Source: Tubulanus polymorphus (lineage: Eukaryota > Animalia > Nemertea). Taken from it: a stretch of DNA of 64,000 nucleotides. Where the stretch lies: contig NC_134028.1 in assembly GCF_964204645.1 (NCBI RefSeq), forward strand, positions 12,819,263 through 12,883,262, in the 5' to 3' direction. The notes beneath the pieces were generated by a model. That model did no database searches, was not told where the DNA came from, and saw only the letters and a list, made by a program, of their open reading frames with translations. Shown piece by piece: positions 1 to 63,189 of the stretch. Position numbers and translations under genes: made by a program. Within the stretch, counting starts at the first letter, position 1. The number at the start of each line of letters is the position of its first letter.

Positions 1-213
1 AGGAATATATTTTTGTTTTTCTAAATAATCAATAGTTAAATTAGATAAAGTAACTGCTAATGTTAATTTTAAAATATCATTTATATCAAATCTATCAACA
101 TTAACACTTCCCATTTTGAATACTTTTTTTAATACCATTGAATAACCAACAGTTCCAACTGATAGTAATGCGCCATTATATAATCCAGTTATTATCCACT
201 TATTATCACTCAT
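1..213 (-). CDS. Small two-helix membrane protein of Polinton/adintovirus type (3' end outside window; not in ORF track)
   Basis: ATG at 213 (TAAATG) opens MSDNKWIITGLLYNGALLSVGTVGYSMVLKKVFKMGSVNVDRFDINDILKLTLAVTLSNLTIDYLEKQKYIP to the window edge. Resembles recalled small adintovirus proteins ending DYLxKQKxIP. Confidence 0.65.
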   Translation of the reverse strand, partial: MSDNKWIITGLYNGALLSVGTVGYSMVLKKVFKMGSVNVDRFDINDILKLTLAVTLSNLTIDYLEKQKYIP

Positions 214-216
214 TTA

Positions 217-570
217 TTAATCAAAAAAATTACTATCTTCAAAATATTTAGTTATCTTAGTGATGATTATTTCAACATTTATTTCATTACTAGTTTCATT
301 TGTATATATTTCAATTATTATTTTTTTAATATCATCGATGATAAAATCTTCATCTAATTCATAAAATCTTAAAGATTCTCTAATTAAATTAGTAATCTTT
401 TCTACATTAAAAGTTTCTTTATCTATTGTTTTTTCATACTTAAATGTTGTTTCATTAGAAAATGCAATATTTTTGATTTGTGTAATTACATCATTAATGT
501 TAAATTTCATTTCTTTCTCACGTTTAAAATCAAATCCAAAACATATACTCGGTCCAACAGTTATATTCAT
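217..570 (-). CDS. Hypothetical viral protein, 117 aa
   Basis: Open ORF with TAAATG start, tightly packed between neighbouring viral ORFs; no recognised domain. Confidence 0.55.
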   Translation of the reverse strand: MNITVGPSICFGFDFKREKEMKFNINDVITQIKNIAFSNETTFKYEKTIDKETFNVEKITNLIRESLRFYELDEDFIIDDIKKIIIEIYTNETSNEINVEIIITKITKYFEDSNFFD

Positions 571-586
571 TTATATAATGAAAAAA

Positions 587-1372
587 TTACTCTCTACATC
601 TTATAACTAATTCATATATCACAGGAAAGTTATTCAAATCAATTAAATATCCATTATGATTTCTTATTTCTAATTTAAAATTATTGAAATGTGGAATACA
701 AGGTTTAAAATCACATTCAGCTAAATTATAATTTATTTGCGTTCCAAATTGTTTAACATTCTTCAATGGTAAAATGTTTAATATACTAGAATTACAAGTT
801 ATATCTTTAGTTGCTTCAAATGTTTTTGTTGGGTCAATCAAATTGCAATAAATATAAAAATGCGTAAAAGGTATTAAATTTGATATACCGTATATGTTTC
901 CAACAATATGTTTATCTGGAGGAATTCCTAACAGTTTAGCAAAAGGTTTTTTTACCACGTAAGCATGTCTTCTTATCATAAATAAAACAGGTTTATAATA
1001 CTCATCATCAAACTTTACTTTAATTTTATTAGAGCTCTCACTTTTTATGAATTTAATATTAAATTTAGAATCACTACCTAACATAATCCGAGCTTTTCTA
1101 TTAATTTCTTGCTCTAATGTTTCTAAATTATATAATCCTGGTGTAATCATAAGTTGAAAATTTTTATTTCTAAGTTTATCAAGAATAAAAAAGCTATGTT
1201 CATCAGTTTTATCCGATATATTGTAAAATGAGTTACATAAACTTATATTTACTAATTTTAAATCTACACAATTCTTAAATTCTATATCTAATTGAACTAG
1301 TAAATTATGTGATTTATAATTTGTAAGTTTTCTAGAATCAACAAATATTCTGTATTCTTTTAATTCTACCAT
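587..1372 (-). CDS. Putative minor capsid (penton, single jelly-roll) protein
   Basis: Motifs IFVDSR, LKLVNISLCNSFYNIS, ITPGLYNLETL, AKLLG, YIYCNLID, SILNILP and FKLEIRNHNGYLIDLN..YEL match the pattern of Polinton/PLV penton proteins. Intact, 261 aa. Confidence 0.7.
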   Translation of the reverse strand: MVELKEYRIFVDSRKLTNYKSHNLLVQLDIEFKNCVDLKLVNISLCNSFYNISDKTDEHSFFILDKLRNKNFQLMITPGLYNLETLEQEINRKARIMLGSDSKFNIKFIKSESSNKIKVKFDDEYYKPVLFMIRRHAYVVKKPFAKLLGIPPDKHIVGNIYGISNLIPFTHFYIYCNLIDPTKTFEATKDITCNSSILNILPLKNVKQFGTQINYNLAECDFKPCIPHFNNFKLEIRNHNGYLIDLNNFPVIYELVIRCRE

Positions 1373-1440
1373 TATTTATAACATAAAAAAATTACCGCTC
1401 ATCACTAAAAATTAATTTTAATAAAATTTTCCCTTAATAA

Positions 1441-4400
1441 ATGGATGAGAAGATACCATGTGAAATTTGTGGTGAACTTCTAAGAAAAAGTAATATGGCT
1501 TGACATATGAAAAAACATGATGTAAATTATAAACCCCCTAAACTAAACTGTCCAAAATGTAATAAATTATTCTCAAGAAATTATGTTAAAAAACATTCAG
1601 AGAAGTGTAAAATTAATGGCGCAACGGCTAATGTTGATAGTAATGAAAGTAATAGTAATTCTGCTGAAGTTGAACCTGAAGTTATTTGGAAAAGACCTTT
1701 CTTATTCTATGATAAGGATAATATAAAAGATCATTTCTGTGAGCCTTGTCGAATGAAATATAACCCTGAAAATATAGAAGATTGGGAGAATCATCAATTT
1801 CGTAAAGCACATATAGATAAAATTTCTAATAAATTTGAAACTGAATTCAATGAAAGAAAAAATAATTTATTAGAAAAAATAAAATATGAGAAAACGTTAC
1901 CAGATAATAAAGAAACAGTTAGAAAAACAATATAATGAATTAACAAGAAAAACATATTATTAGGCCAGCCGTAGGCTGAGCCTATTACTTTACAAATGGA
2001 GCGAATTTAAATGACATGGTTTCCACACAAAAGGCTCTTTTGCTTGCCAAGTGAGGGCATATTCGAACAAATCACGTATTTAAGCGTAATCCATTCTCGG
2101 AATCGTAGCGAGCAGAATTTTGAAATAGGGTCTCATAAAAATGTTTTCTGCATTTTTCACGAAAGTTAAATCGGGAAAATTTCAATTTTTATCAGCCAAT
2201 CAGGAAGTTGTGTCTTCCCTGTGATTGGTTTATCTGAAAATATCAGCAGCTGTTCACGTGAATTATCGCGATTTCATTACTGGCGCTTTTGTGCATGACT
2301 TCATGTATCAACACGCGACAATACTTCCGCGTTCGCTACGTGTTCGCTGATTGGCCCATTTACTGGGAAATTCCACAGAAGCCTAATGTGGTTTGTTACA
2401 AGCGCTGTGATTGGTTCGACCCGATTCTGGCATGGCTTTAGCTTAGTGGGTTCGAATCCCTTGACGGGTGAAGATGATGGATCCTATCAATATCTATTGA
2501 AACTAATAAGTTTCCCGGTTGGGCAGCCGCGGATATCTACCGGAAGTATTCCGGTTCGATATTTCGAGGTTTCTTTGAATTTTGGAGTGATATTGAAATC
2601 CGGTAAATACCAGCGGTAGATTGTGAAAACCCATTGCATGATATTTGTATTACTTAATCAACGAAAAGCGTCGGGGCCGCGCCAGGAGTTTTCGTGATTC
2701 AAGTAGCGCAATAGCCTACTTCTTCGTGTTCGTCCACCTCAATTTTCACTCCGCCGATCTCTGACACGGCTCTGTCCCCGTCGGCGCTGTGATTGCACAT
2801 TCGTACCACCAAAATTTTTTATTTCTATATCAGGGAGGTCTGGAGAATAAAAAAGTCAAAATTTGGATATCACATAGGCCTGATTTCATCGAATAAGTCG
2901 ACCATGGTCGTTCCGTTTCCGTACTTATTACCACCTAAAACCGTCTGAACAATTTTGTCACAACCAACATTTCGTTTACAGAAATCAGGTGTTCACGTGA
3001 ACCCGCGGTATCGTCTACTGTTTTACTTCCTGGTTTTATTTTAAGATTTAAAATTGTATTTACAAGATCGATTTCTATGAAATCTTTAGTTGATTTGGTG
3101 TTTGGGAGGAATTTTTATTTGCTCTACAGAAAATTCATCCTTGACAATTGCGCAAGGTTCGCGAAAAAAAAGGTTTTACCAAATCGGGTGTATGACCTTG
3201 ATATGCTAATTAGCCATGTGCCCGAATTGCAAATTCAATCAAATTTTATTCTGCCAAAAAATGTTAAATACAATTCGCTTTCCGAGAGTTAATGGTATGC
3301 TGCATGGAACAAAGTTGTTTTGAGATGGGTCTTGAAGCTATTTAGGTCGAGAGATAACCATCTAGATAGTTCGTGAGAGTTCCAAAGTTTTGAAGACGCT
3401 TCAAGGTAATGTCTTGATATTTGGTTTATACGTGTATCTATCCTAGACACATCTTCAGGCCAAAAACTGGCCCTGTCAGATTCAAGATGGCGCCAAAATC
3501 AGCACTTTTTACACATTTTTGAAGTTTTCGAGGGAAATTTTGAAGACACTTTTATCAATAACCTTGATCATTCGTATATATTTATATCCCCCGAGGGCCC
3601 ATCGGCATGAGAAAAATTGGGTCGATCGGACTCAAGATGGCCGTACTGTAACCTTTTTTGTTCCCAAAAATGTCAATTTTGGCCTGAATTCTGAGTACTG
3701 TAGCTTTCTAATGGTGTGCCATGTTTCATTGCAATTTGTAATGGGTATTCTTTGGAAAGGGATCTTTTATATCCGAGAGGGTATTTTTGACCAGGCAATT
3801 ATGACGCACTTGCTGGCCATCTTGGGGTCATCAGTACTCATTCGTAGGTGGAAAAAAAGTTTTTCCACATCATAATTGATACTTAAGCATATTTTGCTAC
3901 TATAATCAATTGGAAAGTTGTAGCTCATGACATGTTCTATGATCGAGATGAGTTTCAAGCTCATTGGTTTTTGTTTATGGCCACCAGGGGGCGTTGAACA
4001 ATACAATAACTTAGTATTTCTATATTACATTCATACCTATGCATATTTTGCTACCACAATCAATCGGAAAGTTGTAGCTCATGACATGGTCTATGATCTT
4101 GGTGAGTTTCAAGCTCATTGGTTTTTGTATATGGCCACCAGGGGCGTTGAACAATACAATAACTTAGTATTTCTATATTACATTCGTTCCTGCTGTCTGT
4201 GTTAACACACGATTTTACTATGTAAATGATATTGAGCAGGGAGTGTATATTGATAAATATAACCCACAGATTACATCATTTATAAAAAGCAAATCTGACA
4301 GGCTGGCCATTGTGCCCCTTGGGGCTCTTGTTGTAAATATCATAAATTGATTATTACAACAAGTAATTCAAATCTACATAATAGAACAATAAAACATAAA

Positions 4401-5135
4401 GAAAACGTAAGAAAATACCAGGAGCTTAATGAAGATCTATTACCAATAAATTATAAACAAAAATGCCCACAATGTAATTACGCGACCTTAAGACAAGAAG
4501 GTACTGTGTTATTTTGTGTTGATTGTGGATGGCAAAAGAATTTATGGGGTGAAGAAAAAACTAGAAATTTTCTCATAGATCCAAAATTAAATTATCTAGA
4601 TGAAATTTTTAAAATATTTTCTATAAAAGATCATACACCAGAATATATGCAATGGCTTGAAAAAATGAAAATAATAGAAAATAAAAATGGTGAAATAACT
4701 AAAAAAGATATTATAAAAACAATTATTCCGTCAACATTTAACACAAAACAAAAGAAAATGTATTTATATTTATTATTTAACGATTATTATGAAAAACCTA
4801 AATTAACAGAAGAAGATATGGAAAATATAAAAAAAATATTCAAACAAATATTAATGTATCATTTGGAAAATAGAATAACAGATTCAATTAATTATGAATT
4901 CTTTTTAAATAAGATTGTAAATTATTTAAACATAGATATTATAATTCCATTTGACGAATTAACAAACGAAAAGAAACAAAGGGAGCGAGATGAAATGTGG
5001 CGCAAGATAGAACTTTATTTAAATAAGAAAAATGAAATGGAAGAAGAACCTAAACAAATTATACAAGAACAATTAAATGAAAATGAAGAAGCCAATAGTG
5101 ATTTCGATTATGATGATATTGATTTTATGTTTTAA
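1441..5135 (+). pseudogene. C2H2 zinc finger + VLTF3-like (poxvirus A2 family late transcription factor) fusion gene, split by a HINE insertion
   Basis: ATG 1441: MDEKIPCEICGELLRKSNMA*HMKKH (TGA at 1501), then CPKC..H..C and FCEPC..H..AH fingers, with a frameshift near 1880. Removing 1958-4331 joins ..TRKTY|CKYHKLIITTSNSNLHNRTIKH in frame with ORF 4347-5135. That ORF has CPQC..CVDCG and a VLTF3-like C-terminus, INYEFFLNKI..QRERDEMWRKI. Confidence 0.72.
1958..4331 (+). mobile_element. Non-autonomous Helentron-associated (HINE/DINE-1-like) element with nested repeats
   Basis: 5' subTIR GGCCAGCC plus adjacent inverted copy (taggccagccgtaggctgagcc); 3' subTIR GGCTGGCC followed by hairpin GCCCC-TT-GGGGC and TCTTGT. 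Inserted at a TT site with no TSD (empty site acatat|tgtaaa). Confidence 0.75.
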
Positions 5136-8100
5136 TGACCATAAGGTAATGTTTTTATACCATCATCTGAAATATGTCTTTTATCATCAAATGGATTTAA
5201 ACTAGTTTTTTCAACTTCATTAATGTACATCTCATGATCTTCTGATCTTAAACAATTCATTTTGTGTTTCATTACAATTGAGTTATATAAACACTTTATA
5301 TAATCTTGAAATTCTATATGTTTATCAACCACATGTTTTGTTATTCCTTTTAACTTTTTAGCTTCATGATCTTTTGTTCTGTAACTATACATTTTACTTC
5401 TTATCCCAACAAATTCAATCATTTCATCACCCCCTAATTCATCTTTAAACTTACCAGGAATCTTTTTATTATCATTGCTAAATAGTTCATGATCTTTGGG
5501 ATAATTGCTAAAATCAAAATGATGTTTTAATGTTTTTAAGTCTTTTGTTATATCATTTGTCTTGATTTTTAGTATGTAGGCGTCGGTATTTTTTTGGATT
5601 AATGGGAACCCAGAATTGAATGTTCCATCATCTGTTGATAAATCATAAACATAGTCAGTTGGGTTATATATTTCAAATAAATCTTCTTCTGTTAACTCAT
5701 TTTCTACATGTCTTAAATTAAAGCAATTTGGTTTAGATTTAATCAATCCAATATTCATATTAAATCCTAATGAACTGCATAATATATTCAATCCTGATAT
5801 AGCAACTTTTCCTTTTTGAGCTAAAGATATTGTTTTGCGGTTTTTGAAACTTTTTGAACTATCTGCAGCATAGAATCCAATGAATAACCATTTTCTTAAA
5901 TCATTTTTTGCATTTAATACATAATCTGGAACTATCTTTTCTTTTGTTGAAGTATTACTTTTAACTATTGCATGAATATAGAATTCATCATTATATTTTA
6001 TAGCAAAATCTTTAGGATTATTTACAAGTATTCTATAAACTGGTGTTGATTTCATAACATCCATGATTTTAAATGTTTTATTTGGATAAACTTCTTCACA
6101 GAATTTCTTTATTCTTTCTAATAATTTTAAGTCTTGATTGCATAAATACCAGCAATATTGAGTGCGATTAACATAATTATACACACCTGCTGAACCATCA
6201 CCCATGAAAAATCCTTTGATAAAATATTCTTTTTCTTCTAATGTTTCGGGTTCTATATTATAAATATTATCAATAATTTCATCAAATGACATATGATTCA
6301 TATTCTTTAGAAAAATCTTTTTATGTAATAATTCATCTCCAAATTTTTATATCAGTTGGTTTTATTTCATCGCCATTTCGTTTAATTAAACTATGATCTT
6401 CTGTAACATCTACAAATCCTAATTCAGTTCTAACTCTATAGATTTTCTTATTTGTTTTATGCCTCATAATATTCTTTAATTTTTTCCATCCATTTCTTGT
6501 CCAAACATCCATTAAACCATTTATTTGTATTAATTCTTTTTCTCCATATGAAATATAACATTCATTTTGTTTTGGAATTATTTCTGAAATTCTTCTTATC
6601 AATATTTTATCATTACATTTTAATAATATTGGGGTGTCAGCTGTTACAGAATCAATATATAATATTTCAATATGCTTTTCCCCAAAAAGTGGTTGTAAAA
6701 CATTATAATAAAAATCATACATTAATAATTTTGATACTTCTAAAACAGTTGAGCCAATAAATATAGGTTTATTAAATTTCATTGACGTTCTTTTTAATTC
6801 AACTGCTGTTAAATAATCTTCAAATCTTTTATTTCCTAAATGTCTAGGACTTGATTGTAAATGTCTTAATCTTTGAGAATTATTTACTAATTCAATATTA
6901 TTTCTATTTCTAATATTTTCGCATGTTTTACCATAAAAACTATTATTCATTAATTTGAAGAAATCTTTTTCAAAATCTGTTTTTGATATGGTTCTCTGTT
7001 GAGTATTGAAATCTATATATTTTTCTATCCACTTCGATTGATTAAATTCAATATATCTATGTACTTTCTTTTATTTCATTCCTTGTTTTAGATAAAATTT
7101 TAACATTCTATGAACGATATAATTGTATTTATTATTTTGAGTAAGTATTAATTTTTCTGTAAAAACATGATCTTTCGGTTTTATTTTCTTCTGGTATTCA
7201 CTTAAATAACTATCATCTACAGTTAAATGTTCTGGGGAATAAGGTAAGTTTCTTGTTTTAAACTTTATATTTTCAGGATATTCTAAATCAACTACAAAGA
7301 AATAACCAATTGGTGCTTCATCTTCTAAACTCATAATTGCGCTTTCCCAATTAGTTTTATCATCATTTTCAATTTCTGTTAATATAAAATTTTTATATGG
7401 TTGAGGTTGCATCATTGCCCAACCATATAAATTATTGGCGTCAATATATAATAATTTATATTCATCATTTGCTTTAAAATATCTATCTCCCATAACACCA
7501 CTAATTCCACCTCTAATTGATTTTTCAAATGATAAAACCATATCTGGTTCTTTTAATAAATCTAATTCTACATTTGTATATTTTAAACCACATTGCCAGG
7601 TTAAACCAGGACTAGAGTAGCAATAACAAGGATCAACATTAAAATGATTCAAATTAACCTCTCTCAATTTTTCAAATATGTCAGCCAATATCATAACATC
7701 TGATTTTAAATATAAATCAACTAATTCGCCATGATTTTTCATCTTAAAATGGTTACAAATATTTAATGTTCTATTAAACACTTCATCTTTCACATACTCC
7801 TCTTTTAATTGATCATAAAATTGATCTTTTAATAATTCTGTTACATTAAAATCATCATGTGTTTTAATTGCGCCTTTATATCTCAATAATTTAAAATCTT
7901 GTTCATTTGGATAATAACATCGAGTTCTAACAAAATCATTATCAACTAAACTTTTTGATAAATTATCTAATGAACTTGCTAGAAATCTATAAGAATCTAA
8001 AAATCTAATGCAACCAAATTGAAATGAAATATAATTTTCAGATGTTTTAGCTAATAGTTTAAAATCATATTTTCTTACATTTACACCATTCATAGCATTA

Positions 8101-9930
8101 TATTCTTCTATTTCTTGATTAATTGTGCCCAATTTCCTTGATAATTGTTTTATAAATAGATGGGTATCATAGCCTGTTAAATTATGAAATAATATTGGTA
8201 CGAAATTAACTTTCTTAGCTTGTAAATTGCAATCTTCATGAGCAGCTCCACGATATTTTGAATTTAAATGATTATGATCTCTAACTTTTTTAGCAAATGA
8301 ATAAAAACGTTTTTCACAATAACAACAATGAGTTGCATAATTAAAATCAATTTCATCTTTTTTCATAACTATTCTATTATTTTTGTTTAATGATTTTGCA
8401 AAATCACTTTCTAATTCAATCATTTTGTCACAAAAATCATTAACTACATCTTCACCTCTAAAAGAAATATATTGACTTTCATATAATTCAGGATAATTTG
8501 ATTTTATATAAATTCCATAAGCAGCAGCTCTTTGATGAACTTTTTTAATTGTATTTATAATTGGTGGGTCTTGTATTGTGTCTTCACTTAATTCATTTCC
8601 TTTATCCATTGATTTTAATAATTGCTTTTTGTTATATATTTCTTTTCTATCTTGATCAGTTAATTCTTTATTCAACGATTCAAAATCCCCATAAATTACA
8701 AATGGAACAATATTCTTAAATTTATGATTAGTAAATTTCAAATTATAATCTTTTTCTGTTGGCATTATTAATTTACAAAAATCTTTATTATCACATAATT
8801 CTTTATGTTTTAATAATGTATTCTCAGTCATAAATTTAGATAAACATTTTCTACATAGATGAATTTTATGATGATGATCACTTTCTGTTCTAAAGAATAA
8901 ATCAATTTGTTTTAACCACATATAATGTTCATTTTCATCTTTTTTGTAATATAACAAATCTATAGCATTTTCATCATCATAATATTCTGTTAAATATAAA
9001 GCTTCCAATGTATAATCTTTAATATTTTCACCTTTTGTCTTTGGTAATTGCATTAATTCGAATACATTTATTTTTAAATTATTAACTTTTTCTATTTTAG
9101 AAATCATTTTTATAGTTACTGGATATTGATCAATTTTATATAATGTTTCATATTTCCGATAATCTGTTATTCTACAAACATTTTCCTGTGTTGGATGTAA
9201 GCAACTAATAATTGACCATAGAAAACATTTATTATCTTCATTTTGAATATTTATTACTGCCTTTGTTGTAAATGGTAATTTAATATAAGATGATGCTTTA
9301 ATATCCTTTTCTGTTGTAAAGTTTGAATCATTTTTAAACATTTTATTACTTTTTGATGTTTTATTTCTTTTTGTATTATAAACATTTAAATCTAAATATA
9401 TAATTTCATTCAATGTTAAGCCAGAACCCTCAAAATATCTTTCTTCAATATGACGTTTAAATTCATTAAATATTTTTTCTAACTTCTCTTTTATTTGTGT
9501 TTTTGAAATTATTTCTTCAGAGTGTGTTTGAATATTATAACTCATTTTTTCTTCTGACTTTATAAAACTTACTTTCCCAGAGATACTAATTTTTGGATAT
9601 TCAACATCTGTTATCAAATCTAGTATTTTTTCTATTATTTCATTAAATTTACTATAATCTTCTATTGTTGTTCCTTTGAAAAATCTAAATATAATAGCTG
9701 CAGGACCAATTTTACTATGTAATGTTTCTAAAATTTCAATTGTATCTTTTATTTCTAGTGAATCAATATAATTTCTAACATTTTCCATGTAAGGTTTATT
9801 TGAAATGGATTTAGTTTTTGAAGTTGGTTTTTTTACTTTTTGAGGTTTATCATCGAAATAATCTTTTCCTAAAACATTATTACTCAAATTTTGATGGTGT
9901 TTTTGTGATTCGAGATGTCTATTATAATTC
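5132..9930 (-). pseudogene. polB: Protein-primed family B DNA polymerase (pPolB, Polinton type) with an intein; one nonsense codon and frameshifts
   Basis: ExoI YGDFES, ExoII FHNLTGYD, ExoIII YLKSDV, motif A YIDANNLYGWAM, motif B KLMNNSFYGK, motif C YID|TD, C-terminal GKFKDE..FVGIRSKMYS..KLKG..FDDKR. In-frame TAA at 7071-7073 (GMK*KKVHRYIEF); +1 frameshift at ~6342. Confidence 0.95.
5588..6650 (-). mobile_element. Intein with LAGLIDADG homing endonuclease inserted in PolB motif C (pol-c site)
   Basis: Starts S (SVTADTP) right after YID. Block B VDVTEDHSL; LAGLIDADG motifs YFIKGFFMGDGS and LFIGFYAADS; block F YVYDLST; ends IQKN followed by +1 Thr (TDA). Length 1063 nt = 354 codons plus one extra base. 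Confidence 0.93.
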
Positions 9931-9934
9931 CTTT

Positions 9935-9981
9935 TTGATGGGTTTCGTCGTCAGACGAACCCATCTATGGCATCGTTGTCA

Positions 9982-10013
<32 letters not shown>

Positions 10014-11152
10014 GATGTTTCTTTATGACACAATTTAAGCTGTTTGTGTGGACCCACAATTCTGTAATTTCACACAGGTATTCTCTACTTGATGTAGATG
10101 GTGCAGCTTGGTTTATATTTGATTCCGATGTTTATAAGTGCTCTAATTTGGTTAAAAGATAATTAACGTTACTCGCTAGTTCAAGCCGCTGTATAGCGCG
10201 TTGCTACGACGACGCTCGATCAACATACTGGTACTCGCTGTGTAATACTGAACACGTATATACCTGTAGATATTGATCGTACTAGCACCGGTTTTAGATA
10301 ACGCGCGCGCGCTGATCGGTCTTAACACTTCTCGGAACTGCTGTGCTAAATGCTGAGAGGCCGAATCTATGCGCAATCATTTATTGGGCTCGTCACATTT
10401 GATAGTGAATGGATAAATAACCGGTGTCAATGACGGTCGCTACTCCCCATCAGTATAACTCATCAGTATAAGAAATAATTCTTTCAAGTTTTTTTTTCAA
10501 TCCCCGAACGTGGTTGTTACTATGTTGACCTCGCCGTTTTATAAGCTTACCGATGATTCTTCTAGTATTTTCAGGGTCACAAGACATGACGAAGTTGCAA
10601 AGTTTTGTACAAATTTCACGAAACAAACAATTATTTAGGCGGCACCTGATCTATTGATTAATTATGATAAATAATGTTTATTTCATTAAAAATTTGTTTT
10701 ATTCAAACACTACTTTCATCGCACATAGCGTGATCGGTAGGCCCTACTATTCTACGGTAGGCCATGGACTCTCATGTGGTAGGCCTATTACAAATGATAC
10801 AATCCGCGTGTCCGTGAATAAGTGACACGTGGTGGGGCGGGTTGTGAGGAGCATCGAAACTAATCCGTCACAAATAATAGATAGAAAACAATACCTTAAG
10901 AGGTTAACTTTTATTAACATCATTACCAAATCAAAACCTGCACATCCTATCATAAATAGAAATTCTAAGAATTTATTTCAAAGAATAATAAATTACGTCT
11001 AAATATTGGGATTCGAACTCGTAGCATCGATTCAGGTGCCTTTCCCAAAGCGGGTATCCCGCGGGGAAAACCCATTACTATTTATATCGAGAATCGCCTT
11101 TTTGACAGCGGGTTCGGTGAATGAAACAGAAACAATTACACAGAAACCCATC
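9935..11152 (+). mobile_element. DINE-1/HINE-like insertion in the 5' part of polB
   Basis: 5' GATGGGTTTC..GAACCCATC inverted pair, a (GTCT)n/GTCC microsatellite at ~9983-10010, and 3' subTIR GAAACCCATC at ~11142. Confidence 0.6.
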
Positions 11153-11409
11153 ATGGAAAGTTTCTTTCTGGTTACTATAAATTCATTACAAACTTCACAT
11201 TTTATTTCATCCACATTCATATTTTCTAATCTTTCTTTTCTTTCATTGGAATTTTCTGGAGTTTCAAAATCTATTACATTTTTTATATGATTTGCAGTTT
11301 TTTCATGTCGTGATTTTTGGGATTTATCGATGTATTTTTTACAATATTGGCAATAATATTGATTTTTATTAACATTATTGTTTTCTGGCTGGTGTTCATT
11401 TTCCCCCAT
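11153..11409 (-). pseudogene. Zinc-finger N-terminal segment, probably the true 5' end of polB
   Basis: TAAATG start; YYCQYCKKYIDKSQKSRHEKTANH and KCEVC fingers. Same strand as polB, separated from it only by the 9935-11152 insertion. Confidence 0.55.
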
Positions 11410-11448
11410 TTATTAGGGGAAAAAATTACTTGTGGTGATGAGTGGTGT

Positions 11449-11736
11449 CTCGACCGCTCGACCTCTGATCTGAAAGCCCACTTTTCCAATTACTGGTAGG
11501 CCTATATGTCTTTTCATACCAGAGGTCGAGAGGTCGAGCTCATAAAAATAAAAATAAATTCTCACAGGCTTGAATTCATTTTTATTTTTACTCACTCGCC
11601 CCTCAACCTCTGATATGAAACAACATATACCCTATTACTCTAATAATTTCATATATATGAACATTATATAAATGAATATCATATATATGAAAATCAATTA
11701 TATAGATTTCGAATAAAAAAATATGTAAAATAAATG
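11449..11736. promoter_or_regulatory. Inverted-repeat (hairpin) region between divergent viral genes
   Basis: Arms 11503-11538 / 11595-11629, inner stem 11543-11561 / 11572-11590, extra arm copy 11449-11475. Homologous to 62583-62800. Confidence 0.55.
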
Positions 11737-12279
11737 GTAGAATTAAAAGAATATTAAAAGTAACGAGTAATAAACGAGTTGAAGAAAATATTAATTTCCA
11801 TTAAGAAATTACTAATAAATGAAAGAACAGATACTACATTTCAAAGATATTTACATGAATTAGAAAAATATTTTAGGCCGACAATTAAACATTTTATTCC
11901 TATTCAAGATTTGATTAGAACTGCACGTTTTCGTTTTCAAGTGAGTAATATTACTGAATTAAAGTTTAAAAATTATTATCTAATGATTGAGTTATCGAAT
12001 GAAAAAGATAAAATCTTATTCAATACAATAATTCCAAAATTCACAACATTTAATGAAATAGATAAACATTTGATAATTACAGATGAATTACAATCACTTT
12101 TATATAATGAAAAATCAGATAAATCATTATTTATACACCTACGATATTGCCCTTTCAGAGAATGCTATGTAATGTTTTCAGAGTACAAGAAAAAAGGTTT
12201 ATCCCTGACATTCCAAATGAAAAATCATTTAAAGATACAGGAACTCAATGTAACGAGCAATGTAATGATCATTATTTAA
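11734..12279 (+). pseudogene. Degenerate hypothetical viral ORF
   Basis: TAAATG start, MVELKEY*K*, in frame with ORF 11779-12279. Confidence 0.45.
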
Positions 12280-12399
12280 AGAGTATTACAATGAATCCAT
12301 AAGATAAATATCATATTCTTTACAGAGCACTAGAATAACAATAGGCCCTATAATTCAACTAGAATCCTTAAGTTGTACAGTTTTCGTACTTAGCATTTT

Positions 12400-15360
12400 C
12401 AACCACAGGGTTGTGAGTTTTGCTATCTGTAGCACGCTGGGGATCAATATTTAAATCAGAGTCAGAGTCTGATGAAGTCTCATGAATTTCCTCGTAGGGC
12501 TGATTCATTTCAGGTACCCGTCGGTTTTACCTCTTTACGGGGCTTATTTTGATCTGTCACCTTTGGAAATGGAATAACACCACAAGGCAATAATAAACTC
12601 CATCTTCCCGTTTCACTGAATATACGACATCTCCAAGAGATTTGGTGACCAAATTAACATCAGAACGCCAATGATCAGCTATTTTATGTTTGCCCTTTAG
12701 GCCAACATTACGCAAGAGAACACGTTCACCGTTAGTCCAAACACTTTCTTTCACTCTCTTGTCATAGCGTGCCTTGTTTCGGTCGTTAGACTTATCAGCG
12801 TGACTCAGCGCCGATTTATATGCTTGATCTAGAGATGTCTTTAGGTCTTTCGCATATTTAGAATAGTCTGTGTGCTCGCCTTTACCGGCAGGATGAATGT
12901 TGAAATACCAATCAACCAACAGTCTTGGTTGTCTACCAAACATGAACTCGAAAGGTGAGTGACCTTTAGCATCATTTCGAGTACAGTTATAAGCGTGACT
13001 TAAGAACTTCAAATGCTTAGACCAACTGTCATTGATCTCCTGATCTTGAGTACCAATCATATCCAGTAGTGTTCTGTTGAAGCGTTCACACTGCCCATTG
13101 GAAGGGCTGTGCCATGGACTCGACAGTGACAACCTAATGCCTGTCATTTTCCTAGGAAATCCGAAAGAGTCTTTCCAGGAAAGAGTCTTTCCATAAAACT
13201 TCAGCCACCTGCTTCGTAGTTTCGTTTTTCGTCGCCATCGCTCTGGAATAACGGGTGAAGTGGTCTGTTATTACGAGTACATGTGTTCTCCCGGTCTTAT
13301 CCGGGTCTACACCGAGGAAATTAATACCAACCAAATCCATGGGTCAGGTGGACTGAATATGTAACAGTGGGGCTGATCTTGGGTCTCGTGTTTTCTGCAA
13401 GATATAGTTTCTGCAGTTGCCAATGTGTTTGCTTATGTCGGACTCCATATAAGGCCAGTAGAAACGATTGCGTGCAAGGTCTAAGCTTCGTTCAGTTGCA
13501 AAGTGACCGATATCGTCGTGTATGCCTTGCATGGCCTTTTCCCTGAATTTCTCTGGTACTACCAATCTATGTACCTTCCTACCTCTAAAGACTGATGTTT
13601 TATACAATACATCACTATCAAAGTAAGTTGTGCCTCAGTTTCTTAGCATATTCTGAATGACCTTCGGACATTTACGCCATTTTCTCCTGGGAAGGGGTAG
13701 GGATTCATATTCTAGAATGTTGATGAAATTCCCAATGACTTGGTCATCTCTCTGGGAGACTTTCAGTTCTTCAACCGATAGCGACTGTATCTCATCTTGG
13801 GCAATAATTTCCAAGTCCTGTACTGAATTCAATGTGGCGCTCAAACATTGGGCTATTGGAACGTTCTGAGCTTCCACGACAGCTTGACAGTAGTCTTGAG
13901 CGGATTGGAGTATGGCGACTTCAAGTGCGGGTCTTACCCGATTGACTAATGATGAGATTCTTTCCTCCTGTTCAGTATCTTGGCTGTCCATATCGGGCCT
14001 TCTTTAAAGTAGATCTGCATCGACATTGTGACGCCCAGCACGATATACTATGTCAAAGTCATAGTTGGTTAAAGCGGCTAGCCATCTGTGGCCATCTGTG
14101 ACCAACTAAACGGAGGTCAATATATAAGTTAATGGATTATTATGCGTCAATATCTGGAATTTCTTCGCTTCAGAGAGATAGTCATGAAACTTGTTCTTGA
14201 CTGCCCAGAACCGGGCAAGGAATTCTCGTTTATGTACAGGGTAATTCTTTTCGCTGCTAGACAGGCTTCGGCTAGCATATGCTACTGGGCGCAATGTCCC
14301 TTCCTCTCTCTGATACAGTGCCCAGTGTTCTCCACGGCTCAAATTTATAGCAGGGCGCAGTAAGAAATATTAAACTTATTCTGCATCAACGATGCAAGCA
14401 CATTGCGGGGGTTTGTGGGTCCTCCCCCAAGAAATTTTTTTAATTTAACGCCTCCTCAGAGTGTCTGAGACAGAAAAGCATACTGGAATTCGTGAAAAGT
14501 CACATGTGGTTTTAATGCTGGGACGCCAAATATCACAATATATCTATGGACGAAAACTGGGCAAGTGGCTCAGTTACTATGATGGTTGTCTATTTTTAGA
14601 GAAACTGACAATGACCTACGCACTGGAGAGAATGAATGCATGAACAAACACTTACATGCAATTTTTTAAGAATTTCCTAGAAGTCACCGCAAATGTTTTG
14701 AAATTCATAGCTCAGCCAACTTTTACTCGTAACTAGGTGACTAAAAATATATCTAATTCAACCCACAACTAGAAATCTCATTAAGTTGGGTGCTATTCTG
14801 ATTCCAACTGGAATGTGTACCACAACTTTTCCCCTAACTATATCATAGACAGATATGAATTAGGTCAATAACACTTAAAGTTCAACTGAGAACTGTAATA
14901 ATCTAACCAGAGCTGGATTGCTGAAAAAAGGATGTGATAAAGATGTAGGTTGCTGTTTTTTGAGTTTGTCTCGTTTCCTCTACAATCTCACCTGACAGTA
15001 TTCCTGCCACAAGATAGGGGTGGACTATCTTGCTTGTCCCGAAGAATACTTCAAGATACAAATTACAATTTGGTTAAGCCGATTAGGCCAATTTGAGCCA
15101 AATCGAGCCCCACGTTGGGCGCCAAAAATGTAACGCACTTCCAGATGGTATTGGCAACGTGCGTGCGTGGGGCTAGAAACTCAAAATAAACTTACTGAGA
15201 ACGAACTCAAATCACAACGAACTCTAAAAATAAAATACAATATATATACGTTTATTAAGATGATAAGTAATAGAGCAATGAAATATTATCTAAAACCAAT
15301 CACTAAACCGAACCAAATTTCACCCAAGTTATACCAATCCCAATCATATTGTGTTACCAA
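12400..15360 (-). mobile_element. Degenerate Ty3/Gypsy LTR retrotransposon (RNase H, integrase, PBS, part of the 5' LTR)
   Basis: PVAYASRSLSSSEKNY..EFLA (RNase H), HDDIGH..FYWP (integrase zinc finger), TDHFTRY and NGQCERFNRTL (integrase core); multiple stops. Confidence 0.88.
15107..15124 (-). promoter_or_regulatory. Primer-binding site, tRNA-Lys(CTT)
   Basis: Minus strand reads ..GTTACA TTTT TGGCGCCCAACGTGGGGC: the LTR end followed by the 18-nt Lys1,2 PBS. Confidence 0.85.
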
Positions 15361-27200: not shown

Positions 27201-30200
27201 GCTTTGATGAATTACCTTGATCTTTCATATATATTTGAATCTTGGGCCCATCAGCGTAACAAAAATTGGGTCAATCAGACTCAAGATGGCCGTCCTATGA
27301 CCTTTTTAGTGCCCAAAAATGTCAATTTTCGCTGGAATTCTGGGTCCTGTGGCTTCCTACTAGTTTGCCATTTCTCATTTCTATTTGTGATGGGTATTCT
27401 TTGGAAAGGGATGTTTTATGCCTGAGACAGGTATTTTTGATCAGCCAATTATGATGCAATTGGTGGCCATCTTGGTGTCATCAGTACTCATACGTAGGTT
27501 GGAAAAAGTTTTTCCACATTAAATTGATACCTAAGCATAATGTGTCACTATAATCAATTGGAAAGTTGTAACCCATAACTTGTTCTCTGATTTTCTTGAG
27601 TTTCGAGGTCATTGGTTTTTGTATATGGCCACCAGGGGGCGTTGAATAATACAATAGCTTGGTATTTCTATATTAGGCCTATATTTGTACCTATGCATAT
27701 TTTGTAACCACAATCTTTTGCAAAGTTGTAGCTCATGACATCGTCTATGATTGTGGTGAGTTTTATGGTTATAAGATGGTAGTGAGTCGATGACGTCATT
27801 TTCGTGTCGCCACTTATAACTTGTTGGTGGGAGTTCAGAGGAAGATTTGACAAACGAATAGATACTTTAATCTTATTTATGCAGTGTGAAATTTAGCTTT
27901 TTTAAAATATTTCCCTAAATTATTAGAAAATGCCGATAGTAAGATCGTGGGAAAGTTTTTATCGTTGAATGGGCGAATCACGGCGGCAGAGTGCACCTGT
28001 GATAAGGCAGAAATAGTTCCATGTGAAGGCAAAGCTTTTAAATGATTAGACAGTCGGAGGTGGTTTATTAACTTTTTTCAATTATGGTGCTGCTAATTTC
28101 CCAATCAAATTGCTAGATTTCGATCGTTTCTATGGTGGCTGATTCGGGCCATGTAATAAAAAAATCACAAACGTTACAAATTTTTTTTTGCGGACGCTTT
28201 AAAGTCGGTTTATTGCGCGATTAAACGAAAATTACCATGTTAAATTGAGAAATTACCGCGATAAAACGAGAAAAAGTCGTTTTATCGCGCGATTAAATGA
28301 ACTTTTTCGTTTTATTGCCACGTTAAAACAAAAAATAGCGCTATAAAACGAAAATTACCGCGTTAAAACGAGAAAAAGTCGTTTTATTGCGCAATAAAAC
28401 GAGAAAAAGTCGTTTTATCACGCGATAAAACGACTTTCGTTTTATTGCCATGTTAAAAACAAAAAATAGCGCGATAAAATGAAAATTACCGCGATAAAAC
28501 GAGAAAAAGTCGTTTTATCGCGCGATTAAACGAACTTTTTCGTTTTATTGCCACGTTAAAACGAAAAATAGCGCGATAAAACGAGAAAAAGTCGTTTTAT
28601 CGCGCGATAAAACGAACTTTTTCGTTTTATTGCCATGTTAAAACGAAAAATAGCGCGATAAAACGAATTTTTCGTTTTATTGCCACGTTAAAACAAAAAA
28701 TAGCGCGATAAAACGAAAATTACCGAGATAAATCAAGAGAAAGTCGTTTTATTGCGAAATAAGACGAACTTTTTCGTTTTATTGCCACGTTAAAACGAAA
28801 TAATTCTTTTTAGTCCTTTTTTTCTTCAACAAAAAGTTGAGTACGTCCTCATTGTGGGAACTGACGCGGAACGCTACACTCGACGCTTGCTGGGAATGTA
28901 TGCACCATAGTAAGTAAAGCATACCATATAAGCCTACGGCTGTGCCACATTTAGGGTGTTACGTCGGGGGGGGGGGGGTGTCGGCCGGGACTAGTAACTG
29001 ACCCACTTTTGAAATTTAAGTCCCGCTTATCTTACGAGGTCACTCTTCTACTTTCAGTCGGGTAAAGTGCAATGTGGCTCTTTCGCTGCAAATAGCCCAT
29101 ACATATATTATTGATCTGGTTTAGTGTCACAGAACTGCATTAGCCTTGATGTAAGCTTGCAAATATAACCACAACCAATTTCCTCAACACTACAGTGTTG
29201 CCACTTCTCCGGATTTCTCCGGAATTCCGGATTTTAAAAAAATCCAATTTCATTTCCGGATTTTCGGGAGAAGTCAAATAACCACAAAAGAAAACATCGC
29301 GAAAAAAATAAAATCAATTCGGGATTCGACCCTAAACATCAAAACGTAGTGGCAACAACCCGGCAGTACACGATTAAACCAAGATGACGCGACGATCGAA
29401 ATCGATTGACGCTTCGTTTGTTTTTTGGCTCTCTGGTTTATGTATGAGGTGTATTTGACGGAACCAATCGCTTTTTGAAAAAAAGATCTATAGGCGGTAA
29501 TGAAAGTGAGGCCTATAACGCGTATTGCGCCAGAACGCATCTCCTGGCGTTGTAATTTCAAAAAAATTTTGGGGGAGGGCCCCCAGACCCCCGACTTATT
29601 TTCCGGATCTTTAGCTTCACGTAAGTGGCAACTCTGACACTATTGCTGTCTTTCTAGAATATGTTTGATGAAATCCTGGAAGAATTAGGTATGGGTTCCC
29701 TCATACCTATTTTTCGTGAAAACAAGGTACGGTATAGGCCATCTAAGTTGCACCCGCTGGGGCTGTACATATGGATTCCCTTTTGGTTCTGAAGAAAGGG
29801 AAGTTGTTGGTTTGTGGCGTGTGAGTGGAGTGCTTCAATACGCAGGTGTCCTCTAAATCCGAGGGTCTTCAAAATACGGGTGATGCCAAGTTACTTGCTA
29901 CACCAGGTGGTTCAGTTCCACAGTTCCGGGGTTAAGATTTGACTCAGAGTTAACTCATTGAAAATGAACAACTGTGGAACTGGGCCCAGGATCCAGTTCC
30001 ACAGTTGTGAGTCACAAGAGTAAAATTTGAGTTAAAATCAGTGCATTTTCATTGTTTTTATTCAGAATCACATCTAAACTCATCTGTGAAACTGGACCCA
30101 CGTAAATGAGGTCCGTTTATTTAAGACAATATAATGCCTTTTTCTTAATTTGGCACATCCGTGGGGGACAATTCCCTGCATGACCTAATTTTTTTTCACT

Positions 30201-33200
30201 TGGTATAAAGCCAAAGATATTTTCGCGCCGCGAAGTCATGCAACAATGAATGTCAGTAGATTGCCAAAAAGTCTCGTATTTGTTGAATATTGTAAGCAAG
30301 CTTATCTGTATATCCTGTTGTTACGGTTTATGGTCGAGTTAGTTCACGGTTTATTACTCACATTATTTGTACCTTATATAAATACAGTATTGGGAATAAA
30401 TTCTATATCATTTGTATCTGCGATATACGTGTGTGTGTTATTGGTATTTGGTGCGCCCGTTTAAGGGCCTGATCGTCGCAGAGTTTTCTACATTTTGGTC
30501 CCTCGAGTCCTGGAGCCTGGAAGTACGTGATGGCAGAAGACGGACGGCAAAGCGAAGGCTACAAAGGCCTTGTGCGGAAGAGGACAGCCCAGCGGGGACA
30601 AGTCACGATGATTTTGAATGACGCAGATTCGGTGGTCAACTCAAGAACAACTCAGGCGCCGGACATCGCGAAACTCGAACGATTTGTGCAGCGACTCGAG
30701 ATCAAGATCACGCTTCTGACTGACATAAATGAAGAAATGTTGGTGATGATAAAAGATGACAGCGTCTACATGCAAGTTTCGAATGAAGCAGAAGAGGCCA
30801 TTTCGAATGCCACTGATCGTAAGTTGTTTTATGAACAATATTTGAAAAATGCGACGTTAACCGCTACTAAAGTTAGAACTGAAGGATTTCAGAAATCCAC
30901 ACTTCCGACGCTTAAATTGCCCACGTTTACTGGGAATCTGCTTGAATGGTCTACCTTTTGGGGGTTGTTTGAATCAACAGTGCATAATAATTCAGCGTTT
31001 TCTAACATTGAGAAATATAGTTATTTGCTCGGTCAAATTAGTGGTGACGCTAGAAGTTGTATTGACCGTCTTCCTATGACTTCAGAAAACTATGATAGTG
31101 CCGTTGAATTATTACAAAATCGTTTTGGTCAGACGCACCGTTTGTCAAAAGCATATTTGCAGGCTTTAACTGAATTGAATCCGCCAACAGCTGAAGTTTC
31201 GTCATTAAGGCATTTTTATGATAGTTCTGAAACGTATATTCGACATCTCGGTTCAATTGGTATTTATACTGAATCCTACGGCGTGATGCTTGTTCCAGCT
31301 ATGTTGGACAAGTTACCTTACGATGTTAAAATGTCTATGGCAATTATGTGTAATAAACCTGATAGTGATTGGTGTTTATCTGAGCTCAGTGAAGCTTTAC
31401 TTGTTCAAATTCAATTAAAGGAATCATGCATGTCACCAGAAACGAACGCGCCTATTCAATCGTTGCATTTAAATATCAATTCAAAACAATCTGTTAATTC
31501 GAAACCCGTCAGGAATGTTACTTGAAACTGTGTGTACTGTTGTAAATCTCATTTGCCATCAGATTGTTTTTATGTTACCGACGTTAGGAAGAGAAAGGAC
31601 ATCGTTCAGAAGGCAGGCATATGTTTTAATTGCCTTGGAAAGCATAGAGTGAGTAATTGTCGGTCAGAAGTTTTATGTAAGTTTTGCAAAAAACGACACC
31701 ACAGTAGTTTGTGTTTTGCCGTATCCCGCATGGGGCCTGGTACCGGAAATCAGGCTGACATGAGCTTTAGTGAACCGGGTAGAGTTAAGCAAAGAAGATT
31801 AATCGTATCTAATTCAGGAACTCAAACTAATTCAGTGGTTGAAAGTGGAACCTGTCAATCAAACCGAAATATATCCTTGATAGAATTTGAAACCACAGCT
31901 GTAACCACTAATGCAAAGTTATTAGATACTGTTATGTTAAAAACTGCGGTGACGGAAGTTTCCGGTACTGATAAAACAATCATTGCTAATTTGCTTTTTG
32001 ACGATGGGGCGCAACGGACGTTTATTACGTCTCAATTAGCCAAACATTTAGGGCTTCCAATCACTAGGAAAGAGACAGTAAGCATGTCTGTTTTTGGATC
32101 TGATAAACGTAGTGTACATCATTTGCCTATATCTCGAATCACAGAAGTACCATGCTTTCATTTCACAGGCGTGGATTATCTGGGGCCTTTGTTCGTAAGA
32201 TCGAAAAGTGGAGATTATGTGAAAACACACGTTTGTTTGTTTACATGCGCGGTGAGCCGTGCAGTTCATTTGGAGCTTGTGTCAGATCTTACTACGGAAC
32301 AATTTATATTAGCATTTAAGAGATTTGTGTCACGTACCTAGACAGCTCATTTCTGATAATGCATCTACGTTCACTTGTGCTAATGATATTCTGATCCGCA
32401 TTTTTTCTGCAGTAGAATTTTCGACATATTCATCCCAACAAGGGATTATTTGGAAATTCATTCCAAAACGTGCGCCGTGGCACGGCGGATTTTATGAACG
32501 ATTAGTATCTTTGGTGAAATCATCAATTTATAAGGTGCTAGGTAGAACCTCCGTGACATTTGATGAGTTGCATACTTTAGTTACGCAGATTGAAAGTCGA
32601 TTAAAAGACCGTCCAATTACGTATATATCTGATGATGTACGCAACCCGGAACCTCTGACTCCGTCCATGCTCCTTTGTGGACACCGTCTTACTTCTGTTC
32701 TGGTTGCAGATTTTGATAATACTGATCCAGACTTTCGTGTTGATATTGAGAAATTTGTGAAAAGATATAATTATTTGGATACATTGATTACACAATTTTG
32801 GAATAGATGGAAAGGTGAATTTGTGTTAAGTTTACGTGAGTTTCACCGTACTACGGGCCATAATTGTTGTGATATTAAGGTCGGTTCAGTAGTTCAAATT
32901 CACGATAGCGGTCCTCGTTTAAGGTGGCGTCTAGGTGTAGTTACTAAATTACATCTGGGAAATGATGGCCACGTGAGATCCGCATCTCTTAAAACATCAA
33001 CCGGATTTACGAATAGAGCTATAAGTTGTTTGTATCGGTTAGAGGTTTGCGCTAAGGAACCCGTAATAAGTTCTTCAGTGAGTGATGCTCCAGAATCAAC
33101 ACGTCCGAAAAGAGCAGCGGCAGTTGCAGCAGAAGCAAAAATTCGTCAACTTTCGCGCCGGGCGTAGGAGTCGGATGATGATTAATTGCGCTCTTGAAAT

Positions 33201-61490: not shown

Positions 61491-62857
61491 CATGAATCAT
61501 GAACAATTTATGCTCAATAGTTTTATCGGATACATTTTAAAAAGAGTAATATAAACTTACATTTACTAATTTTAAATGTACACAATTTTTAAAATTATCT
61601 AATTGTACAAGTAAATTATGTCATCTATAATTTGTAAGTCTTCTAGAATCAACATATAATCTTTATTCTTTTAATTTATCTTGCATTTATTTTACATATT
61701 TTTTTCTATTCGAAATCTATATCATGGTGCCCTTTTTCATTCTTACCTTAATAATGTGAATTAAAAATCGCCAGAACATAATTCTTGAATATCTTCACTA
61801 GATAATCTATGATATCGATCTGGTAGATACGCTCTGAATTTATATTTATTTCCCTTCAGCCCCTCGTATTCAAAATGGATTTTAAATTTATTACCATGTC
61901 TATTTGTAGTTGATTCAATGTTTGTAATTAAATATTTTTTATAAATTGTTAACTCAGCTTTTTGAATTTATAATCTACAGATTTTAAAGAAACTTTAATT
62001 CTATCTAGGAATGATTTATTGTTCTCACTGTGTACTTGTTTACTCTCCATTTAAATATATAATTTTTTATTAAAATTGCTTTCATTAATATTAATATAAT
62101 ATTCATAAATATGATATTCATATATATGGAATAACCTAGTAAGTGTAGTTAGGTCGTTTCAGGTCAGAGGTTGAAATAAGAGTGAATAAAGTGTGAATAA
62201 GAGTGAATAAAGAAAACAAATATAAAAAGTAATTTTACTTTCTAACTATAATATATATTCATAGTCGTGTGTATTCCTAGGTAATAATTATCAGAATAAA
62301 TTAATATAATTAGAATAGATTTAATTATTTAAATCTATTCTATTGTGTATTGAAATTAAATCAGTTGAAAGCGGAGCAATTGATTTAATTGATCTCATTT
62401 ATCATTCGAAAGGGAATATTAAAGAGACACGTATTTTGACCTATTTACAACTATTGTGACATGATACGTGTGTGTGTGCGTCTGTGCCCGCGTGTGCGTG
62501 TATCTAGGAGGGAATTGTGAGGAGAAAAGCCATTATCTAAATCGGGACTAATATCTGAGTGACGAGTAATTTGGGCAGACTCAGTAATAGGGAATATGGG
62601 GGTTCAGGCCAAAGGTCGAAGGGTCGAGCTCATAAGAAATGAAAAATAAATTCTCCCACGCTCGAATTTATTTTTTTTTACTCACTCACCCCTTTAACCT
62701 GAACCCCCATATTCCCTATTACTCCTAATAATTTCATATAAATGAATATTTTATAAATGAATAACTTCTAAAATCAATTTTAATAAAAAATTTGATATTA
62801 AAATGGAAGCAAATAAGAAGTACTACTGTCCAACATGTAAAAAAGAAATACATAAAT
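61491..62857. mobile_element. Second relic of the same Polinton-like family
   Basis: Minus 61686-61491 reads MQDKLKE*RLYVDSRRLTNYR*HNLLVQLDNFKNCVHLKLVNVSL (paralogue of ORF 587-1372). Also a degenerate ORF from 62050 (-), the hairpin module 62583-62723, and a zinc-finger ORF start MEANKKYYCPTCKK at 62803 (+). Confidence 0.8.
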
Positions 62858-63189
62858 GTGATACAACTGACACAGGCCTAACATTCACCAAGAATCTTAG
62901 TGTCTGATGTACCACATGATGTTGGTTACACTAGGATCGTTAGAGCGACGGAGATCACAGGTGGAGACAACCACTGCCAGTGCTGGGTGAAGCCTAACAC
63001 TGTTTGTCAACTGTCTGTGTATTTCGTAGTAGGCTATCGATAATCACCTGATACTTTTCTGTTGTTTCTTTTCTCTCTGAATGTAGTCGAACGTAATTCT
63101 AGTGGCCACCCGCGACTCAACGACCTTGATTAAAACTTGATCAATTCAAAATGTATTTTAAGATAAAATCCCACTATTTTACAGATTAA

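Follow-up and report, generated by a model that had tools for sequence, protein, structure and literature searches.

The question raised by this 64,000-nucleotide stretch of the Tubulanus polymorphus genome (contig NC_134028.1, positions 12,819,263 to 12,883,262; the whole stretch is called the window below) is how an animal Polinton came to carry a polymerase intein, a VLTF3-like gene and TAAATG gene starts, features that a sequence-only reading had taken as three independent signatures of one poxvirus or giant-virus helper. The Polinton at positions 1-12300 belongs to a multicopy family, of which it is a decayed member. Within them lie three AT-rich viral segments (GC 22-27% against about 37% in the surroundings) with host repeats between them, and these segments hold two small open reading frames (ORFs), a penton gene, a zinc-finger-VLTF3 gene, the gene for a protein-primed DNA polymerase (pPolB) with its intein, a hairpin and a stub. 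What is both new and firm is the intein; a virophage lifestyle is a hypothesis open to test.

The pPolB gene lies in pieces on the reverse strand at 5132-11409. Its start is at 11409 (start motif 11408-11428), beyond a host insertion of 1237 nt, which corrects the earlier gene model. The intein previously proposed for polymerase motif C (pol-c) was found at 6650-5588 on the same strand, with its insertion point between YxD and TD of the motif, and the intein-less relatives P0013 and P0074 read through exactly there. It has the features of a class 1 intein, being an in-frame insert at a conserved site with the terminal residues (Ser first, Lys-Asn last, Thr at +1) and the block B and F motifs, and it contains a LAGLIDADG endonuclease (LAGLIDADG_3, E 8e-6); the window copy is frameshifted. 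A homologous insert occurs in other Polinton pPolBs at 41-49% identity, and P0124 is a natural, intein-bearing open frame of 1476 aa. The Pfam family Intein_splicing matches the window piece weakly (E 0.038) and P0124 at E 4e-7, under its curated cutoff. The open literature was covered as listings and as passages on the terms sought, and within it we found no description of a Polinton motif-C intein; a case given in a supplement or a subscription paper could have escaped notice. Passages in four papers mention inteins or homing endonucleases only generally or for other genes (PMC12220804, PMC5718144, PMC5499653, PMC13768754), those in two intein surveys assign viral inteins to four families of giant viruses, list fungi, algae and protists as holders of nuclear ones and do not mention polintons (PMC5784728, PMC10710043), and a single sentence elsewhere suggests that the endonuclease inserts of pPolBs stem from intein invasions (PMC11071308).

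Empty and filled intein sites coexist among sister copies. Skips were counted in reads of run X7, which has the same species label as the best read holders; 40 of its reads (10, 11 and 19), and likewise one X2 contig, cross the empty site and leave out a net 1063 nt, the intein's length. Loose-ended reads stand at the two intein borders (129 and 92), and the depth of 337-743 beside the intein is roughly halved or lower inside it (125-263). Some of the empty signal is due to subfamilies that have diverged further, so that intein occupancy can be set only roughly, at a third to a half. Among the relatives, filled P0138 and empty P0141 are identical at 571 of 574 upstream residues and their exteins are 99% identical. 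It is quite probable that the intein would splice out after translation and that its endonuclease would cut empty sites and so spread it between copies.

A scan of viral contigs gave 178 intein relatives, of which 79 loci were kept; the intein sits at motif C of PolB in 74 of these and in another protein, presumably topoisomerase II, in the remaining five. For six of 80 viral intein starts the C-terminus could not be placed clearly, and these were left out; identical rows were merged, and two later trees used hand-picked subsets of 46 and 52 rows. A prokaryote scan yielded 66 loci; 17 of the 20 that were examined went into the intein tree, and the intein piece had no match among phages. In three trees the pPolB inteins form one clade (100; 100/100; 100/99). 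This clade nests inside the giant-virus inteins with moderate support (84/99, 94/86 and 85/91), and 15 of the 17 prokaryotic inteins split off at 100/100. An approximately unbiased (AU) test rejected the viral inteins alone as a clade (p 0.026), partly owing to two archaeal rows. The set closest to the pPolB inteins consists of eight viral PolB inteins, seven of them on GVMAG-named contigs; Hsp70, ubiquitin-protease and RING genes are neighbours of the closest inteins, and their holders appear to be mimivirus-order viruses. The motif-C inteins of giant-virus PolBs (Mimiviridae, Phycodnaviridae and relatives) have the same site, Ser...[His/Lys]-Asn termini, Thr at +1 and LAGLIDADG endonuclease at 33-45% identity, but here the carrier protein is the protein-primed polymerase of an endogenous element.

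By sequence, shared ancestry of the pPolB and giant-virus inteins is firm, and transfer from giant virus to Polinton is the likely direction. The intein probably entered the polymerase lineage once, from a giant-virus PolB at the same conserved motif site, at a time when both DNAs would have shared a cell. The DNA around the insertion site is identical at 10-12 of 18 bases to twelve giant-virus sites, a likeness compatible with one capture and then retargeting. A poxvirus was rejected as the donor; the pPolB inteins nest among giant-virus PolB inteins and not among poxviruses. The intein trees bear out the gene exchange with giant viruses that had been suggested for this locus. The Polinton intein would record that animal Polintons and giant viruses have been in physical contact, and the presence of a mobile intein of giant-virus type in many copies of a Polinton in an animal genome widens the known eukaryotic range of inteins (fungi, algae, protists and giant viruses).

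Related inteins were also seen in other settings. In the topoisomerase II-like protein (L086, L089, L090, L095 and L099) the intein lies between D and TDG, a case of movement between unrelated genes, and one viral PolB (L055) has two related inteins at different motifs (4405 and 6022). At motif C of PolB the archaeal genomes L106 and L107 (1501-2500; one of them Promethearchaeota) have an intein of giant-virus type, and the close archaeal polymerases L112 and L114 have a different intein at the same site.

Twenty-one IMG/VR loci were found by a polymerase profile, and most of them align with the window polymerase at 29-35% identity over 670-930 residues. Pfam applied to 25 proteins from eight of these loci returned rve, A32, double jelly-roll (DJR) capsid and adenoviral protease genes. 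In a 38-row polymerase tree the window pPolB falls in a 13-row clade (Shimodaira-Hasegawa-like approximate likelihood ratio test, SH-aLRT, 99) that includes all three intein-bearing rows, among seven empty ones. The next rows beside it, with weak support (83), are L001-L003, the nearest IMG/VR polymerases, whose loci have rve, A32 and DJR capsid genes as neighbours. On this tree the pPolB groups beside ordinary Mavericks and the family is a variant lineage, not the undescribed virus family that had been put forward. None of the 21 IMG/VR loci has a tblastn match to the intein or VLTF3. Among viral contigs no close relative with DNA context was found with the window polymerase, the VLTF3 alignment, P0178, the penton alignment or P0124 as queries, and metagenome contigs held at least five loci, all distant among the matches listed.

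Endonuclease_7 matches the pPolB relatives P0124 and P0141, the latter matching DNA_pol_B_2 as well, and passages in two preprints describe an EndoVII/HNH-type insert in the pPolB of Group 2/pPolB2 Polintons (10.1101/2023.08.22.554363; 10.64898/2026.06.19.733378). Judged by this insert, the label 'Group 2/pPolB2' would suit the family. With Group 2 Maverick-Polintons (Polintoviricetes) it shares a pPolB with such an insert in relatives, a penton, many nuclear copies and, as regards their coral members, VLTF3; it differs from them in the motif-C intein, the fusion of VLTF3 to C2H2 fingers and the fixed-spacing TAAAT motif, and capsid, ATPase and integrase are not seen in the window. Two observations on contigs may be added. 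The nearest intein-less polymerase, P0013, continues into a deoxynucleoside-kinase fragment; its contig measures 12,994 nt, as does that on which the VLTF3-like P0180 is recorded.

Of six gene starts selected, five have TAAATG, compared with 21 of the 396 remaining ATGs of the viral segments, and the motif proved more specific than had been claimed. The sequence GTAATTTTT occurs four times in the 64 kb, each time before an element gene start and at a constant distance to TAAAT. The pattern TAAWWWWTT-N7-TAAAT has six matches (212-232, 569-589, 1374-1394, 1422-1442, 11408-11428 and 62049-62069), all at element gene starts in two relics and on both strands. Block shuffles of the viral segments gave a mean of 0.34 and a maximum of 3 matches (0 of 500 reaching 6), and nine other spacers from 3 to 12 gave three matches altogether against six for a spacer of 7. 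At the penton start the TAAAT spacing is kept though the ATG lies 3 nt further on, so that the motif is not merely a stop-start overlap, and a plain TAA-ATG overlap was rejected as its cause. Three further starts (11734, 61686 and 62804) show an A-rich variant outside the pattern; over the nine starts the residue at -10 is T in six and A in three. Depletion of AATAAA or T5NT on the coding strands gave no informative signal. In viral contigs the exact motif had at least 120 matches, 11 of them opening an ORF of at least 60 aa, and neither a relative of the family's proteins nor a matching helper was present among the matches listed. The literature, within the scope given above, held no description of a polinton with a TAAAT/TAAATG start motif.

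Passages in PMC11980589 describe the vaccinia late promoter as TAAAT with a T ten bases upstream among T residues, and the intermediate promoter as lacking that T and being A-rich further up. The start motif resembles the late promoter in sequence and is very probably a promoter itself. Common to the element and the late/intermediate promoters and A2/VLTF3 of poxviruses are the TAAAT overlapping ATG and the T-rich upstream tract, with the A-rich variant at the three other starts; unlike in poxviruses, the VLTF3 domain is fused to zinc fingers, and no poxvirus gene was identified.

The zinc-finger ORF at 1441-1959 and the VLTF3 piece at 4331-5135 (both on the forward strand) are one gene split by a host repeat insertion of 2371 nt (1960-4330). 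The 5' part (start motif 1422-1442) has C2H2-type fingers, is broken by a stop and a frameshift and matches the N-terminal half of P0178 (E 1e-19); the 3' part has a zinc ribbon and a VLTF3-like domain (PF04947, E 3e-6). The VLTF3-like identity claimed by the sequence-only reading was upheld by Pfam Pox_VLTF3 on 4647-5132 (27.4 bits against a cutoff of 25) and by the Atlas, in which the feature matches are VLTF3 clusters (0.95-0.96); with the longer piece 4350-5132 Pox_VLTF3 was not returned at E<=0.1. A search of 1.84 billion representatives with the 3' piece found only four matches at E<=0.001. Since C2H2 fingers precede the VLTF3 domain in P0178 (697 aa, 46% identical to the 3' piece) and P0179, and P0178 also matches the window piece 1507-1932, the fusion is, by sequence comparison, conserved in relatives. 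The nearest canonical VLTF3 found (P0181) is 26% identical to the window domain. According to passages in the papers cited, VLTF3 is found in coral polintoviruses (PMC11131425), is named in the legend to a figure on MELD viruses (PMC8502044), and occurs in two Zephyr clusters of polinton-like viruses (PLVs; about 30%; 10.64898/2026.06.19.733378) and in mriyaviruses, which are predicted to be nuclear and have no RNA polymerase (PMC11253617). As it is known in polintoviruses and in mriyaviruses with a predicted nuclear life, VLTF3 is not diagnostic of helper dependence, and it was rejected as proof of cytoplasmic life.

The pPolB plus penton element previously proposed is sustained by the relatives and tree of the polymerase and by the fold of the penton. 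The 261-aa open frame at 587-1372 on the reverse strand (start motif 1374-1394; Atlas 0.98) has four relatives at 40-43% identity, and no match was found when the PDB was searched by sequence. A fold predicted from the single sequence was unusable (predicted local distance difference test, pLDDT, 31), and a five-sequence model (pLDDT 63) matched the mavirus penton in Foldseek (E 1e-7). Matches to capsid chains of mavirus, Sputnik and PBCV-1 range from E 1e-7 to 9e-6, with low TM-scores of about 0.3-0.4, and those among predicted structures include many viral minor capsids, from virophages, MELD viruses, adintoviruses and giant viruses. The modelled fold confirms the frame as a penton (minor capsid protein) with a predicted single jelly-roll.

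Repeated integration, also claimed earlier, agrees with the presence of a second relic (61495-62880) and with the read depth, which is 162-544 over 4341-9982 against 8.5 at 12587-13000 (about 20-60 times the flank). This ratio suggests a family of perhaps tens of copies. The 2371-nt insertion, pieces of which recur across the window, is skipped by 190 X7 reads, and that of 1237 nt in the 5' part of pPolB (9935-11171) by 320; these reads represent sister copies without either insertion. Most reads do not share the breaks of the window copy, which is therefore more decayed than its family.

We tentatively favour, at slightly below an even chance, a Polinton lineage that relies for transcription on a large DNA virus infecting the same cell, whose RNA polymerase is aimed at the element's promoters by the Polinton's own zinc-finger-VLTF3, with an intein likely from a giant virus. 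The element would be replicated by its own pPolB, promoter preference would come from the zinc-finger-VLTF3, and the promoter-donor and intein-donor viruses could differ. TAAAT may be an initiator, from which a poxvirus-type polymerase not visibly encoded by the element would make leaderless or poly(A)-leader transcripts, much as virophages draw on a helper's late promoter; we regard this step as evenly balanced. The fixed spacing and the vaccinia consensus made us weigh the helper reading higher, the dependence itself being suggested by promoter shape only. Virophages and helper-dependent PLVs (mavirus, Sputnik, PgVV/Gezel-14T) share with the element a penton fold and one viral-type promoter before many genes, which passages in 10.1101/2022.07.28.501842 read as use of the helper's polymerase, Sputnik and mavirus using late promoters of their helpers; here, by contrast, the host is an animal, the motif is pox-like and not mimivirus-like, and no helper is seen. 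A bolder form, in which the animal Polinton is an endogenous virophage of a poxvirus-type virus, with pox late-style promoters for all genes, a helper polymerase redirected by its own zinc-finger-VLTF3 and a still-homing giant-virus intein ferried into the animal germ line, is possible but on the doubtful side. Helper dependence, if true, leads one to expect a so far unseen large DNA virus in the host, and a fixed promoter motif with a dedicated factor makes the transcription mode of animal Polintons testable.

A number of points weigh against this helper-based reading. No helper virus came to light in the analysis, nor did an RNA polymerase gene, a transcript or a start site, and the motif pattern was chosen after viewing the starts (n=6). 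Giant-virus intein loci contain 10 start-motif matches in 872 kb, and in the nearest of them TAA-ATG starts are found at 7 of 72 ORFs. For the intein, the second LAGLIDADG motif of the window copy deviates from the relatives at one residue, two archaeal PolB inteins lie inside the virus-type clade, and a placement of the pPolB inteins as sister to all virus-type inteins was not rejected by the AU test (p 0.19), so that the direction of transfer is no more than likely. The idea of three independent signatures of a single helper is not supported, since the kin of the intein are giant viruses whose loci rarely show TAA-ATG and VLTF3 is not diagnostic. Finally, VLTF3 is present in viruses that lack RNA polymerase and are predicted to be nuclear, and the many germ-line copies mean regular access to the nucleus. 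These last two points, together with the VLTF3 of coral polintoviruses, favour in turn an autonomous nuclear Polinton, in which the zinc-finger-VLTF3 attaches to the T-rich box and brings in host RNA polymerase II, and the intein is a one-off capture in a chance co-infection. This is a serious possibility, if well short of probable. Also in its favour, the N-terminal fingers are similar to DNA-binding fingers of CTCF type (E 2e-4) and the polymerase adjoins Mavericks with integrase, A32 ATPase and capsid. The TATA boxes of RNA polymerase II lie about 30 nt upstream, whereas here 7 nt separate the box from TAAAT, which itself abuts or overlaps the ATG; were transcription to start at TAAAT, hardly any leader would remain. 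TAAAT-type initiators are, moreover, tied to viral polymerase slippage in vaccinia and yeast elements, according to passages in PMC6211774. It also counts against recruitment of the host enzyme that the motif is rare in the 21 related Maverick elements (7 matches in 254 kb).

The yeast elements pGKL1/2 are linear pPolB replicons and, to our knowledge, include no penton. They have in common with the Polinton a TAAAN-type initiator, but they encode their own RNA polymerase and use an ATNTGA upstream box (passages in PMC6211774). That the present family likewise encodes a poxvirus-type RNA polymerase beyond the window and transcribes itself in the cytoplasm is unlikely: the left part of the element does lie outside the window, but no RNA polymerase subunit is found within it, and in a relative the penton and zinc-finger-VLTF3 genes are on contigs of 16,883 nt (inferred to be one contig), an ordinary length for a Polinton, leaving little room to spare. 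A small relative of Nucleocytoviricota, of mriyavirus or Zoravirus grade, that acquired a Polinton polymerase would account for VLTF3 and for the giant-virus minor capsids among the best predicted-structure matches of the penton. It is decidedly unlikely, however, as the penton equally matches those of virophages, MELD viruses and adintoviruses, and mriyaviruses have no DNA polymerase and carry VLTF2, HUH and RuvC (passages in PMC11253617), none of which was recognised here. For Mriyaviricetes or Nucleocytoviricota one would look for no polymerase together with HUH, or for an RNA-primed PolB, and the element's pPolB is Maverick-type and groups with Mavericks. A chance mosaic or assembly artefact of unrelated relics is very improbable and largely refuted, although host repeats interrupt the copy and 11734-12279 appears rearranged: every part is covered at similar depth by independent reads, which also span both insertions, the starts on the two strands share one motif, and the fusion gene is conserved in relatives.

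The remaining frames of the element are small. On the reverse strand a hydrophobic ORF truncated by the window edge (1-213, start motif 212-232) and an ORF of 117 aa (217-570, start motif 569-589) have no family found; on the forward strand at 11734-12279 a penton-like 5' stub is followed by a frame of 171 codons, with no family found and lower read depth. No major capsid, ATPase or Polinton integrase was recognised within the window, beyond whose edge the element runs. An rve match at 12560-13267 appears, from its GC and neighbouring ORFs, to be a flanking retrotransposon fragment.

The second diverged relic noted previously was recovered at 61495-62880, where the 5' end of the penton gene matched at 86% nucleotide identity over 171 nt. 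Its reverse-strand part (61495-62210) comprises half a hairpin, a decayed ORF with the start motif at 62049-62069 and the penton 5' end, and its forward-strand part (62583-62880) a complete hairpin and the beginning of a zinc-finger ORF that by eye resembles the pPolB N-terminus. The hairpin of the first relic is a conserved 144-nt DNA structure between divergent gene clusters (11497-11640, forward strand; z -10.3) with a 79% copy at 62603-62782. In both relics (11497-11640 and 62583-62724) a hairpin of about 140 nt (z about -10) is kept between a divergent pPolB-type start and the penton cluster; the arm sequences differ, and its read depth is about three times that of the rest of the element. 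It ends AGT...ACT in both, only one side of the element being inside the window, and may serve as a terminus or an origin or mark where two ends join.

Elsewhere the window contains the retrotransposon domains DUF1759, DUF1758 and DUF5641, which we take to be of BEL/Pao type and largely animal. A long terminal repeat (LTR) retrotransposon of BEL/Pao type lies at 30281-33551, with direct repeats of 212 nt at 98% identity, and among repeats at 34029-35943 there is a HECT-domain ORF (E 3.5e-6), probably transposon cargo. Both are enclosed by inverted arrays of 31-nt subrepeats (28200-28800 and 39680-39975, about 11 kb apart and 90-95% complementary), which are possible foldback-type transposon ends.

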